Of a stretch of DNA of 64,000 bases, positions 3,658 through 48,248 are shown in pieces. A program made the translations under genes and the position numbers. Location of the stretch: the NCBI GenBank assembly GCA_951406725.2, contig OX597819.1, forward strand, positions 110,422,001 to 110,486,000. Reading direction: 5' to 3'. Under the pieces are notes generated by a model. The model did no database searches, was not told where the DNA came from, and was given only the letters and a program-made list of their open reading frames with translations. The DNA comes from Octopus vulgaris (Eukaryota). Positions within the stretch are counted from its first letter, which is position 1, and every line of letters starts with the position of its first letter.

Positions 3658-4346
3658 GAAATAAAATAATTACCCATGTACTGATCATTTTATTTCGTAT
3701 ATTTTCATTTGTTTATTGCTTTGTTTTTGTGCTGAGTTTGATTTGAGAACATAATCTTTTTTGTGGAGAATGGCGATTTGACGTCTATATCTAGCATGTT
3801 AACTGTCCACTTTTCGTGTTCAGTCCTTAATTGGTATATATAAATATTTTAATCTTCGGATTCTTTTTAATATGCTAGATCACTGGTTTTAATTGACTAA
3901 TATCAATTTCTACCCTTAATTAATTTTATATAAAATAAATATGTTCTCTATCCGGTGAATTGACTGCTGCTAATTATTAGCTGCAGGCTGATTTTTCGGG
4001 TCCCAGCGCGCCAAAGTAGTGGCATTTGAGAAATACATTCGAATATAATCGGTCGAACTCCATGCACGCGGCACTCCGGTATCGTTTTTGCATCTAGTTC
4101 AGCAAATTGTATTCATAACAGACCATGGTGATGAATGTTACAGTTATCCTTGCGGATAATAATAACCGAAACTGATCAGTACATGGGTAATTATTTTATT
4201 TCGTATATTTTCATTTGTTTATTGCTTTGGTTTTGTGCTGAGTTTGATTTGAGAACATAATCTTTTTTGTGGAGAATGGCGATTTGACGTCTATATCTAG
4301 CATGTTGACTGTCCACTTTTCGTGTTCAGTCCTTAATTGGTATATA
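3658..4346 (+). mobile_element. Non-coding Penelope/retrozyme-like element: 506-bp unit, ~155-bp direct terminal redundancy, 30-bp inverted 5' tip
   Basis: 3687-3840 repeated at 4193-4346; 3658-3687 is the reverse complement of 4173-4202; HHR inside; 3' end abuts (TA)n. Confidence 0.75.
4123..4186 (+). ncRNA. Minimal type I hammerhead ribozyme with C3G core substitution
   Basis: CCATG-GTGATGA-[stem II with TTATCC ttgc GGATAA]-GAAA-CTGATCAG (palindrome)-TA-CATGG. Confidence 0.7.
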
Positions 4347-4884
4347 TATATATATATATATATATATATATATATATATATATATATATATATATATATA
4401 TATATATATATGTAATTTCTGAAAGTTATTATTTAGCCAACGAGATATAAAGATAGTTAATTTGCTATAGCGTTCGTTTAAGATTGTTTGTTTGTATTTT
4501 TGAAATTAGCTATTTCATCTTTAAATATGAAAACTTAATTTATTAGGTCTTTATTATATATGCATATATATTTATTTATAGAGATTATTTTAGATCTTAA
4601 TTATAATATTTATATACATTTATATATTTTCATTGATAATTTATATATTATTTAAATTTTATATTTCTAATAATATAATAGTCTTTTTTGTAAAATATTT
4701 ATGTAATTAGATATTGACTATTACTGATATTAGATTATTGGTGGGTTTCTTACCTTAAAAATTAATACTTAAAAATTAACTTTAATATTTAACATTATAA
4801 TCGATGTTTTGATATAATCATAATCGTTAAGTTTCTAGTTTGATAATAGAGTTTTTTATAAGTAAAAATTTTATATTATTTATT

Positions 4885-5287
4885 TTACTCTTTTACATGT
4901 TTCAGTCATTTGACTGCGGCCATGCTGGAGCACCGCCTTTAGTCGAGCGAATCGACCCCGGGACTTATTCTTTGTAAGCCCAGTACTTATTCTATCGGTC
5001 TCTTTTGCCGAACCGCTAAGTGACGGGGACGTAAACACACCAGCATCGGTTGTCAAGCAATGCTAGAGGGACAAACACAGACACACAAACATATACACAC
5101 ACACACACACATATATATATATATACATATATACGACGGGCTTCTTTCAGTTTCCGTCTACCAAATCCACTCACAAGACTTTGGTCGGCCCGGGGCTATA
5201 GCAGAAGACACTTGCCCAAGATGCCACGCAGTGGACTGAACCCGGAACCATGTGGTTGGTTAGCAAGCTACTTACCACACAGCCACT
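4885..5287 (-). mobile_element. tRNA-derived SINE family A (CORE-like, internal (TA)n/(TG)n), near full length
   Basis: Pol III A/B-box-like head, CTTGGGCAAGT motif, tail GGTGCTCCAGCATGGCCGCAGTCAAATGACTGAAAC; many copies in window. Confidence 0.85.
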
Positions 5288-5929
5288 TTTATATTTTTTT
5301 AAATTAATCATATTTCTATGTATTGGCTTATGATTTTCACTGTTTGATTTGCCTAATAGTGGTTTTATCTCTAATTTAATATAATATAATATATATATAT
5401 ATATATATATATATATATATATATATATAGATGGATAGATAGATAGATAGATAGATAGAGAGATAGATAGATGTATATGTTCGTGTGTCTGTGTCTGTCC
5501 CCTCACTATCACTTGACAACCGATGTTGGTGTGTTTACGTCCCCATAACTTAGTGGTTCGGCAAAAGATACTGAACGAATAAGTACTAAGCTTACAAAGA
5601 ATAAGTCCTGGGGCCGATTCCTTCAACTTAAGTAAACGAATTTAAAAAACTGGTGAAGGTAAAATAAAAAAGAGTTTGATGTCGCACAAACATACCACCG
5701 CCATCATATCCCGTTACTCGCTTTCCCCTCTTTTTTCTTTCTGTCATTCAATCTATGTATGTATGTATGTATGTATGTATGTATGTATGTATGTATGTAT
5801 GTATGTATGTATGTATGTATTTATGTATGTATTTATGTATGTATGTATGTATGTATGTATGTATGTATGTATGTATGTATTTATGTATGTATGTATGTAT
5901 GTATGTATGTATGTATGTATGTATGCATG

Positions 5930-45139: not shown

Positions 45140-45450
45140 TGAGGCACATAGCCTAGTGGTTAGAGCAGCGGACTCGCGGTCGAGGGATCGCGGGGTCGAA
45201 TCTCAGACCGGGCAATGTGTGTGTTTATGAGCGAAACACCTAAGCTTCTCGTGGCTCCGGCAGAAGGTAATAGCGAACTTCTGCTGACTCTTTTGCTACA
45301 ATTTTCTCTCGCCCTTTCCTCCCGCATCTTGTAGCTCACCTGCGACGAGCCGGCATCCCGTCCAGGTGTGTAACCTATACGCCAAGGAAGCCGGGTAACC
45401 GGCCCTATGAGCCAGGCGTGGATCGAGAAGGAACAAACGACAACAACAAC
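45140..45450 (+). mobile_element. SINE family C, tail type 1
   Basis: Homologous to 19137-19445. Confidence 0.8.
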
Positions 45451-48040
45451 ATATACATATACATGGGCGCAGGCGTGGCTGAGTGATAAGAAGTTTGCTT
45501 CCAAATCGTGAGGTTTCGGGTTCAGTCCCACTACATGGCACCATGGCAAGTGTCTTCTGTTATAGCCTCGGGCCAACCAAAGCCTTGTGAGTGGATTTTG
45601 TAGACGGAAACTTATCCCACAACCATAGCACACATGGAATCACGCACGTACACACACACATAGACACACATACGCATACACACATAGACACACACATACA
45701 CACTCTCGCTATACACATACACGGAGACTCACAAAAACACACACACATTGTGTGCGCACAAAACATGCATATTCCTCCGTACCTGTGATAGCTAGATTGA
45801 TACAACACGCTTGTAAAAATACTCGTTAATCTACGTCCACCCCAACCACCTGAGCCCGACAACGTTTCGGCACAACCTCACACTCCACCCCACCCCCAAC
45901 GCATCACCCCCTCCCACACACACATCACCCCATCCAACCCCAACCACCCCATCCAACCCCACATCACACTACAGCATACAACACTCCTGAACGCCACTTG
46001 AAACCACGCGACCCGACATCGCGCCACCATACAGAGCTGACGGGACGTCACGTATGAGTTCAGCTACACCTATATTCACGTTCGACGGCCGCTAGGGGTG
46101 GGATGGAGATGAGAAGCGGGTACCGACCTTGTACCCTGGTGTACAATAGCATGTCGTAGTGATGGGCGTGGGCAGCGATGTTAACAGGTAAGTACTTCTC
46201 CATTTTTAGATTGTTGCTTTTTTTGTTCGTTTCTCATCGTTTCTTATCTTCTGTTGTTATTGCTGTTGTTGTTGTTGAAGGTGTTACTTTGTAGGTTCTT
46301 GTTGTTGTTGTTGTTGTTGTTTTTCTTGTTCTTGTTATTTGCAGTTAGTGCCCCGTGACCAGACAATGCTACTCACCTTCACTGATTTTGTATTGAGAAT
46401 ATCAAAACACGACATGGAGAAGAAGAAGAAGAAGAAGAAGAAGAAGAAGAAGAAGAAGAAGAAGAAGAAGAAGAAGAAGAAGAAGAAGAAGAAGAAGAAG
46501 AAGAAGAAAGTGAGAAAAGAGGTGGGCATTATTTAGGGACACATGTAAAAACCCCAGGTATCGTGTTTGTTTGCTGTGATACAAGAGGCACACGGTTTTA
46601 TACATCGCCCCTTAACTGATTTATGAGTTTATAGGCAGGCAAGCACGCATGCATAAAACCAACACACACACACACACACACACACACACTCAGATATTTA
46701 CCCACCCTCCTGCATATACGTACTTGATATGATGGCACGCACCGGAGCACGTATAATCGGGAATTTAATGGCACACGTATAACAGATACATATTACAGAA
46801 ACATCTACACACGTATGTAGTGTAGGTCTCACACTTTCTCTGTTCACACACACACATACACACACACACACACAGATACATACGCATACACATATACATA
46901 CACACACACACAAACACAACACACTCATACATACATACATACGCATACACGCATACTCACACACTCACGTATACGCATACACACCCACAAACACGCACAC
47001 GCACACTCACACACTCACACATATGCATACACACATACATACATACTCACACATACACACATACGCATACACACACACACAAACACACTCACACTCACAC
47101 ATACACACATACGCATACACACACAAACACACACACACACATTCACACATACATATAGGTGCATAGGGATATAACTGTTCCTTGTTTCAGCCAGAGGGCG
47201 AGGCCATGCTGTAGCACCACCATTACCGATACATATGCATATGTATATATGTATGTATGTATACACGTATGTATGGATGTTCCTGGTCCAGTCTCACAGC
47301 GTGACACCCTGGGCAAGTGTTTTCCACTGACCGACCAAAGCCTTGTGAGTGGATTTGGTCGTAGGAAACTGAAAGAAACCCGGTATGTGTATTTGTGTGT
47401 ATGCGTGTGTGCGTGTGTGTGCGTGCGTGTGTGTCTGGCTATGAACGTTCTTGTGGCTTTGCCTCTCATTTCGAATTGTATCTCCGGCACGTTAACTTGG
47501 GATTCCTTAACGACAATGTAAAGTTCATGAAATTAAGTTATCTTCGGCTGATGAGTAGCTAGCTGAATATTCCTCGTTGCGTAATTTTTACATCAAAGGA
47601 TATGCTTGCTAAGAAACATATGTAGTCAGAATTTTACCCACTGCACTACCTCAATTTGGATATATGTGTGTGTATGCGTGTACACACACACACACACACA
47701 CACACACTGCATTTATCAGGATGAATTTATCTTCGTCCTATAACAGGAATTACTTCTGTAAATTTCTAACGATTTTTCGTCATACTTTTTTTACGATTTT
47801 CTTTTCCAAGAAACGCATAAGTATGAAAGTATATAAAGAAATAATCAAAATTAGGCTTATTTTATTAAACCAAAGTTTAATAAATTTCATCAAATAAAAT
47901 AAAGGAATCAGATTGGATATAAAGTTGGATTAAGCTTTTATTTCAGATTTCATATTGTTATACGGTTGTTTCGGACAAAAGGTCTAATATTTCCATAAAT
48001 AGAACATCATAAAGGCCGAATTTATATATATATATATATA

Positions 48041-48248
48041 CAGTTAATCCAAACATGAAGACACAGAGAGAAAACACAACAACGCGAGGACGTGGAACAA
48101 GTATAGTGTTATTGGACGCTCAAGAAGGAAAGAAAGAAGGAGGATTTAACGTTTCGCGCGGAGCTCTTCGTCAGAAACATAGAAAAGGGAATGATCCAAG
48201 GAAGGGAAGACGGAGGAAAAAAAATCGCCAACGATTCACACGCGGTCA
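48041..48248 (-). mobile_element. Solo pseudo-LTR remnant with minimal HHR at 48144-48178
   Basis: TTT-CTGACGA-A-GAGC tcc GCGC-GAAA-CG-TT-AAA; (TA)n at 3' end; related tip at ~49913-49998. Confidence 0.7.

Follow-up and report, generated by a model that had tools for sequence, protein, structure and literature searches.

The window analysed here is a 64-kb, microsatellite-rich stretch of the Octopus vulgaris genome (G000:C6:110422001-110486000; the assembly is 2.8 Gb). Among its hammerhead-bearing repeats are a Penelope-like element (PLE), designated family A, and small non-coding repeats of the retrozyme type, families B, C and E. The retrozyme insertions were often found to consist of two head-to-head arms, the outer ends of which lie at two different, fixed internal sites. 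The same pattern of ends was obtained for a second PLE family, H, which lies outside the window, and not for family A. The explanation that we prefer, with a probability of roughly 0.7, is that the B, C and E retrozymes are inserted by the reverse transcriptase (RT)-endonuclease of a Neptune-type PLE of the H kind, which would cleave a (TA)n tract in both strands and start reverse transcription at two internal RNA sites ending in UA.

Results

Retrozyme units and their ends

Ninety retrozyme loci were collected, and after removal of 14 second views of one place 76 insertions of families B, C and E remained. The units of B (approx. 506 nt, tandem spacing 501-506), C (583 nt) and E (approx. 365 nt) are non-coding, the longest open reading frame (ORF) being 38-57 amino acids, thus the earlier claim that truly non-autonomous ribozyme elements are present was borne out. 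There is one type I hammerhead per unit; direct hammerhead pairs occur at unit spacing, and one B trimer was seen on C18. The hammerhead cores are canonical in most B and C copies; in family B the core was CUGAUGA in 21 of 30 loci and GUGAUGA in one, and the window copy at 4123 has the C3G change. Compared with 30 shuffles, the predicted circular folds gave z values of -5.5 (B), -3.5 (C) and -8.6 (E).

The 5' ends of the insertions were variable and their 3' ends fell at two sites per family (sites 1 and 2). Numbered from the predicted cut, these lie at approx. 167-172 and 259-270 in B, 196-202 and 294-306 in C, and 174-180 and 229-237 in E. Each site terminates in 2-8 nt of TA within the unit; since 28-42 such TA words occur per unit, TA alone is not what picks the site. 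CCTTAATT stands before both B start sites and C site 1, and CCCTATATT before C site 2 (approx. 150-290 of the B and C units); they are a candidate recognition word, not seen in E. The direct arm exceeded one unit in 38 of the 76 insertions and the arms cross the predicted cut site freely, which would fit a circle or an uncut multimer as template. No run recorded as RNA was listed for the C unit; contigs of four other runs cover the unit and join its ends, a kind of evidence that cannot show cleavage, strand or circles.

The sequence-only reading of the window had also stated that the 3' end of each host element abuts a (TA)-rich tract. This was confirmed at the level of families: (TA)n adjoins 90 of 105 retrozyme site ends (criterion, adjoining (TA)4) and the single 3' end of family A in 26 of 30 copies, versus 1.6-3.0% of random positions, a background that used a narrower junction window and is not exactly matched to the other two figures. 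It did not hold for the upstream PLE motif of the 42993/38518 pair, which has no (TA)n tract beside it. The TA tracts at 3' ends had a median length of 36 nt (62 ends) versus 12 nt, or 18 nt length-weighted, in random DNA; a preference for long tracts and extension at insertion are indistinguishable in these data.

The small families could also be of a different nature, namely satellite-like or truncated remnants of the pseudo-long terminal repeats (pseudo-LTRs) of unseen PLEs, B, C, D, E and G having multiplied as DNA and their ribozymes being relics. In Xenopus, retrozymes show a relationship to pseudo-LTRs, and of 9 dimers tested 8 were uncleaved, according to the available portion of a preprint (bioRxiv 10.64898/2026.07.22.740005); the window copies of B and D bear damaging changes, and the sample examined consists of 76 insertions in three families. 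However, all 76 insertions are head-to-tail units running through the hammerhead without an ORF, the copies are dispersed over many contigs and mostly have 1-2 units, and the predominance of canonical B and C cores likewise speaks against relics. Since variable 5' ends together with 3' ends fixed at (TA)n form a retrotransposition pattern, this too counts against amplification at the DNA level, which we consider very improbable.

Pairing of the two sites in inverted insertions

A head-to-head inverted arm was present in 42 of the 76 retrozyme insertions versus 1 of 50 A-type loci (Fisher p 3e-11). Both outer ends fell within a site window in 31 inverted insertions, and every one of the 31 had site 1 in one arm and site 2 in the other (11 in B, 11 in C and 9 in E; p 5e-10 versus 0.5). 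The same rule was observed in the C and D insertions of the window, in the D locus L126 and in the G loci L130, L145 and L210.

The lengths of the arms bear on how the second arm was made. It has been proposed for PLE inverted repeats, in the available part of PMC3846280, that they arise by fold-back, and the tail has been interpreted as endonuclease resolution (PMC8557442). Applied to the retrozymes, the inverted arm would come from self-priming on the first complementary DNA (cDNA) or on an antisense template, and the tail would be trimmed from one end by the endonuclease. Twelve of the 31 insertions are compatible with this, several of them having nearly coinciding inner ends, and the arms are closer to each other than to the family median (means 0.980 versus 0.958), although conversion between arms could give the same result. 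Fold-back on the first cDNA predicts, however, that the tail-less arm lies inside the tailed one, and as the site-1 arm exceeds the site-2 arm by more than 20 nt in 19 of the 31 pairs, the simple model is excluded in these. Copying in the reverse direction is impossible because the site-1 arm has no tail, and the tailed site-2 arm stops short of site 1 in 5 of the 31 pairs. Moreover, both ends stop at TA in the unit. Fold-back is contradicted as a general rule by the arm lengths, and we regard it as quite unlikely. Since neither arm can always be copied from the other, RNA most likely served as template for the priming of each arm, at site 1 in one and at site 2 in the other (twin priming).

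At L038/L039 (G000:C2:211284048-211284466) two B copies stand tail-to-tail round a short TA tract. Both cover unit positions 368-172 exactly and form a perfect palindrome, which is perhaps a DNA-level duplication or an assembly artefact.

The element likely to drive the retrozymes

The window was earlier read as containing an autonomous Neptune element with RT and GIY-YIG domains, sharing its (TA)n target with many non-autonomous passengers. Such an element is indeed present: the coding region of family A (39056-42169, minus strand) matched RVT_1 (E 1.3e-7) and, weakly, GIY-YIG (E 0.007), and the RT is followed by a linker of CX4CXXC form (CCRPRCRTC) and at the C terminus by GIY-YIG; the DKG motif is also present. 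Its two pseudo-LTRs are 99.7% identical and each has a minimal type I hammerhead. The shared target and the non-autonomous elements also stood; the part that was not supported is the window's PLE as the driver, since family A has one 3' end and a nearly complete lack of inverted arms, as opposed to the two ends and frequent inverted arms of the retrozymes. The window copy of the PLE is, in addition, frameshifted early in its ORF.

Other PLE families were found by a profile scan of the fetched loci. Family H, which shares 33% identity with A across 401 aligned residues, is an autonomous, Neptune-like element, with a pseudo-LTR spacing of approx. 4.47 kb and copies 98-100% identical. It is young (1,052 candidates, 40 scored at 98-100%). 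By eye, its pseudo-LTR has a variant hammerhead-like motif with UUGAUAA core and ACCGGU palindrome. The 3' ends of H fall at two sites separated by 40 nt (182 and 251 exact matches), and among its divergent pairs on C1-C6 (157 ends listed) 17 of 18 were mixed (p 7e-5). Predicted H site-1 arms were confirmed at two loci (L230, L231), and a third fetch (L232) gave no anchor match. Since H shows the end signature of the retrozymes and A does not, an H-like element is the likelier driver.

Family A might nevertheless drive all the ribozyme elements if the two-site pattern were set by the passenger RNA and not by the enzyme. With 11,584 RT candidates, and 127 scored at 98-100%, it is abundant and very young; its ORF is open over more than 1,060 amino acids in 7 of 22 copies, it shares the (TA)n target, and the RNA could determine how many start sites there are. 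Yet the insertions of A itself are one-ended, H has the retrozyme pattern, and A has no homology to B, C or E, hence we think it unlikely that A is the common driver. Judged from the insertion ends, there are two systems, a single-site one comprising A and the motifs at 7464 and 48144, and a two-site one comprising the retrozymes (4123, 13862, 35001).

Insertion by an H-like element is in line with the available portion of PMC11167929, where PAc is described as cutting and extending both strands, with two internal start sites defining the tail and a predicted dimer. Several points weigh against it. In 11 of the 42 inverted insertions at least one end is outside the site windows (none of these is same-site), and the 31 of 31 figure refers to windows set after the data had been seen and broad (up to 24 nt). 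The sampled loci were the first 30 matches in genome order and were centred on a pattern spanning the cut site. Both arms often copy the same stretch, with overlaps of up to 532 nt, which needs strand displacement or two RNAs. In only 16 of 35 cases did no other locus come closer to an arm than its own partner (C 8/11, E 7/12, B 1/12). One H divergent pair combines site 2 with site 2. No similarity was found of H to B, C, D, E or G, or between these families, nor was any detected among the retrozyme units, A and H. At least two further PLE families (L204, L219) exist in the genome. Finally, for the Poseidon element of Frangieh et al. the available part of PMC11167929 gives no strand difference in start site, and no homology of the start site to the cut DNA. 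Since no sequence homology links H and the retrozymes, the driver is assigned only by the insertion signature, and because of this and of the L204 and L219 families the claim is for an H-like element, not for H itself.

The families at L204 and L219 are Neptune-like; one is decayed and the other has a long open RT-endonuclease stretch ending at (TA)n. At L227 an L219-type 3' end lies tail-to-tail with an H copy. At L202 (reverse strand 850-3400; G000:C1:155.32 Mb) the site-1 end of a C retrozyme abuts a 5'-truncated H with 4 nt of TA between them. The C copy may have inserted into the (TA)n beside H, or reverse transcription may have switched template from the RNA of H to that of C.

The insertion process by an H-like protein can be pictured as follows. 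Tandem copies would be transcribed, cut by the dimer-type hammerheads and probably circularised. A dimer of the PLE protein would bind the RNA across sites 1 and 2 and nick both strands of (TA)n. As seen in the DNA, one arm begins at site 1 and the other at site 2, each at 2-8 nt of TA. The two cDNAs would then be joined at their inner ends, or one alone would survive as a simple insertion. As a more tentative extension, to which we give somewhat less than even odds, an RT dimer may grip one retrozyme RNA circle at the two fixed UA-ending sites and start both cDNAs at once from the two nicked (TA)n strands via short base-pairing. This would explain the PLE tail, the head-to-head repeat and the mobility of retrozymes together, and would divide the Neptune families into twin-priming (H) and single-priming (A) ones with separate passengers.

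Family A and its short copies

The RT4 and linker spacing of A and H resembles by eye the Neptune rows of the PMC8557442 supplement, and it is by this comparison, not by a tree with named references, that A is provisionally placed in Neptune rather than in Nematis. A search of solved structures with the A protein gave no match, and no clade name was found among 120 of its 888 protein homologues listed. The window copy has a frameshift with a stop 49 codons past the first ATG, caused by an A run one base shorter. The shortened form was seen in 8 of 22 copies with a T5A6 run (the window copy counted) and in one T6A6 copy. This early frameshift (window 42160-42170, minus strand; L152-L181), common to several loci, may stem from trans-copying of a defective master, or else from a homopolymer error. 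The pseudo-LTR (window 38771-39054 and 43246-43529) also contains 2.3 copies of a 122-nt tandem repeat.

The ribozyme core of family A was CUGUUGA in 22 of 30 loci and CUGUGGA in 8, and among 100 of 4,856 matches listed position 6 was U or C, never the canonical A6. A literature search for an A6U hammerhead core returned only an unrelated match; A6U and U4C cores may already be described. Of the CUGUUGA copies, 11 of 22 start in a 61-nt stretch which opens with the initiator-like word TCAGAT (window 38637-38576), four of them at the identical base, and none starts in the 184 nt above it. The approx. 200-nt A-type copies thus probably extend from where RT began back to where transcription had begun, on RNA uncut by the ribozyme. 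A promoter in the pseudo-LTR is consistent with the available part of PMC2377424, and unprocessed RNA was used in vitro by a PLE protein, as the portion available of PMC11167929 reports.

The A2 piece (7399-7602) is 73% identical to the family A pseudo-LTR and has 3 relatives in 170 kb of random DNA. The A2 copy at 7464 begins at the same candidate initiator position as the A copies, and F copies have a recurrent 5' start; for these reasons the motifs at 7464 and 48144 look like short pseudo-LTR copies of A-lineage PLEs. The reading of them as retrozymes fits less well: the copies are single pieces of approx. 200 nt akin to the A pseudo-LTR, with no tandem in 50 loci. In the single A, A2 or F locus with an upstream inverted arm, both arms use the same site. 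No second 3' end was seen in A-type loci, and no inverted arm in 9 truncated RT-bearing A copies, the other 21 RT loci having their 5' junction outside the fetched DNA. Family A can still be regarded as a PLE, because the inverted 5' copy and tail are frequent but not universal in PLEs.

Hammerhead motifs of the window

Eight hammerhead-shaped motifs had been reported in the window, and all were located at the positions given for them. A strict type I scan, which required a core within 1 mismatch of CUGANGA, the GAAA, stems I and II and a self-complementary stem III, recovered 6 of the 8, with cores at 4128+, 13946-, 34696-, 35039-, 38550- and 43025-; in two sets of counts, 100 block-wise dinucleotide shuffles averaged 0.27 (max 3) and 0.15 (max 2) motifs. 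At the strictest setting 5 motifs were found versus 0.03 in shuffles. The motifs at 7464+ and 48144- miss the strict scan, yet belong to large repeat families. An Rfam search at E up to 5 gave no hammerhead among 150 of 504 matches listed, all of those listed being microsatellite-driven.

That several distinct families are present was upheld, as the stem I letters differ from family to family (CCATG/CATGG, CCTACG/CGTAGG, TCTAGG/CCTAGA, TCTTT/AAAGA), but the hosts are not all separate elements, since 38518 and 42993 are the two ends of a single insertion. The tiny self-complementary stem III is of the palindromic dimer type, as proposed, except that AACGTT at 34593 is a mutated version of the ACGGCTGT of its family, D, which was read off 7 relatives. 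Stem III is predicted to form no hairpin in the monomer and a duplex between two copies of -13.6 (B), -9.8 (C) and -9.3 (E) kcal/mol; for the ACGU of A and F the predicted duplex is only -1.7 kcal/mol. One compensatory base pair was spotted by eye in stem II of B.

Counted over the genome with exact patterns, for which reversed-pattern controls gave 0, matches numbered 4,856 for A (two free places), 79 for B, 544 for C, 303 for E, 9,767 for F (up to 1 mismatch) and 1 for D. The D pattern matches the window copy alone; a DNA search for D and G together gave 2,155 candidates. The window has 6 strict motifs (5 insertions) in 64 kb versus 3 with CUGANGA core in 170 kb of random DNA, or 6 there once variant cores are allowed (Poisson p 0.006 for 5 insertions). 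No hot spot is claimed, since the random sample is small (17 stretches) and the window was picked for its motifs. In the O. vulgaris genome there is nothing unusual about a window that merely has hammerheads together with a Neptune element and (TA)n. Two more canonical-core hammerhead-like motifs, of other families, were noticed in the random DNA (L209:2233-2271 and L217, minus strand, 2871-2916).

Table 1. Ribozyme-related features of the window (positions from its first nucleotide).
Feature	Position	Strand	Remarks
Retrozyme family B insertion	3658..4348	+	34-nt inverted arm 3658-3691, then 1.3 units of the ~506-nt non-coding repeat
Family B insertion hammerhead	core 4128-4134 (C3G here)	+	predicted cut after 4181; 3' end at site 1 against (TA)35
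A2, decayed short pseudo-LTR copy of an older A-lineage subfamily	7402..7593	+	between two (TA)n tracts
Retrozyme family C insertion (583-nt unit)	13676..14304	-	(TA)n flanks on both sides
Family C direct arm	14045-13676	-	hammerhead core 13946, predicted cut at 13868; ends at site 1
Family C inverted arm	14046-14304		outer end at site 2
Family G fragment, unnoticed by the sequence-only reading	34230..34480	-	3' part of a hammerhead family, without its ribozyme
Family D insertion	34500..34800	-	older, 82-88% to relatives
Family D direct arm	34752-34500	-	long stem II hammerhead, core 34696, stem III mutated; ends at site 1
Family D inverted arm	34753-34800		outer end at site 2
Retrozyme family E insertion	34827..35227	-	~365-nt unit, 1.1 units with terminal redundancy; 3' end at site 1
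Family E hammerhead	core CCGAUGA at 35039	-	predicted cut at 35006
Neptune-like Penelope element, family A	38413..43590	-	pseudo-LTRs 43590-42888 and 39115-38413; single 3' end at (TA)n
Family A hammerheads, one per pseudo-LTR	predicted GUU cut at 42998 and 38523	-	minimal, core CUGUUGA, ACGU stem III
Family A ORF	ATG 42285 to stop 39056	-	early frameshift; RT, CX4CXXC linker, GIY-YIG
Family F, ~208-nt A-like pseudo-LTR fragment	48041..48248	-	minimal hammerhead CUGACGA, ACGU stem III; single 3' end at (TA)9

Family G (window fragment in Table 1; L210:1429-2009; L132) is AT-rich and has two 3' ends approx. 73 nt apart. A hammerhead-like motif lies upstream in L210 and L132, with CUGAAGA core and the palindrome ACACGUGU in L210. 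The window copy starts just past the predicted cut, like several relatives in a sample biased by the query.

Copies of an abundant family resembling short interspersed nuclear elements (SINEs) lie at 26736-27411, 33325-33583 and 61495-62148, and those of a second one at 4865-5287, 19598-20039 and 36055-36485. Many SINE-like copies finish in TA runs that serve as targets, and family E at 35227 sits in one such tail. The segments 32021-32518 (minus strand) and 27391-27693 (plus strand) read like what we take to be the C-terminal part of the ORF of an RTE/L2-type long interspersed nuclear element; a Pfam search of both at E 0.01 gave no match.

Discussion

Much of what the window contains belongs to known kinds: PLE hammerheads, the (TA)n bias of Neptune and PLE-driven retrozymes have already been published or proposed. 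Neptune RTs with a CX2-5CXXC linker, GIY-YIG, the DKG motif and (TA)n bias, which the linker was hypothesised to mediate, are described in PMC8557442, and the minimal hammerhead with palindromic stem III acting as a dimer is a published architecture in the available portion of PMC4209133. Family A resembles the Neptune clade in its RT, linker, C-terminal GIY-YIG, DKG motif, minimal-hammerhead pseudo-LTRs and (TA)n bias, and departs from its description in the U or C at core position 6, the one 3' end and the near absence of inverted arms.

The B, C and E families are similar to the metazoan non-LTR retrozymes (PMC7229834; Li, Clavereau and Pollet 2026, bioRxiv, the part available) in that the tandem non-coding units measure a few hundred bases, are low in GC and each contain a single type I hammerhead with palindromic stem III, and in the proposed mobilisation by PLEs. 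This likeness is known here from genomic DNA, and circular RNA belongs to the published systems. Unlike these, B, C and E are mostly dispersed insertions of 1-2 units in (TA)n with PLE-type inverted arms and two ends 50-110 nt apart. The B and C units exceed the 150-450 bp range (PMC7229834) but are within the published range of 51-972 bp. The word "inverted" does not occur in the main text of PMC7229834, and the 2026 preprint, in its available portion, links retrozymes to PLEs by co-occurrence and pseudo-LTR homology.

H and the retrozymes share with the PLE tail and inverted pseudo-LTR of D. virilis Penelope, Adineta Pen2, Naiad and PAc the extension at one end, the two internal RT starts and the extension of both strands. 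The published tail is 30-40 bp long and "optional" or "often only at one end", compared with 40 nt in H and 50-110 nt in the retrozymes; the near-obligate mixed pairing (31/31 and 17/18) and the short TA microhomology at both sites set the present cases apart. In L1 twin priming two target 3' ends prime on RNA, which results in a head-to-head inversion. Here, unlike in L1, the two priming sites lie at fixed internal positions, and the stretches copied by the two arms overlap. Our literature searches found no account of paired two-site retrozyme ends or of PLE twin priming; older subscription papers, Dfam and Repbase may hold part of it. The new part of this work is thus the paired-end signature, which would connect the retrozymes with a two-site PLE and not with the one in the window.

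The origin of the PLE inverted repeats and tails and the mobilisation of retrozymes by PLEs are named as open questions in PMC8557442 and in the available portions of PMC11167929 and the 2026 preprint. Mixed pairing offers a countable DNA signature which links retrozymes to the PLE machinery without homology and argues against simple fold-back. As the RNAs concerned are short (365-583 nt) and their exact start sites, the target and two young enzymes are specified, the mechanism of PLE inversion becomes directly testable in vitro.

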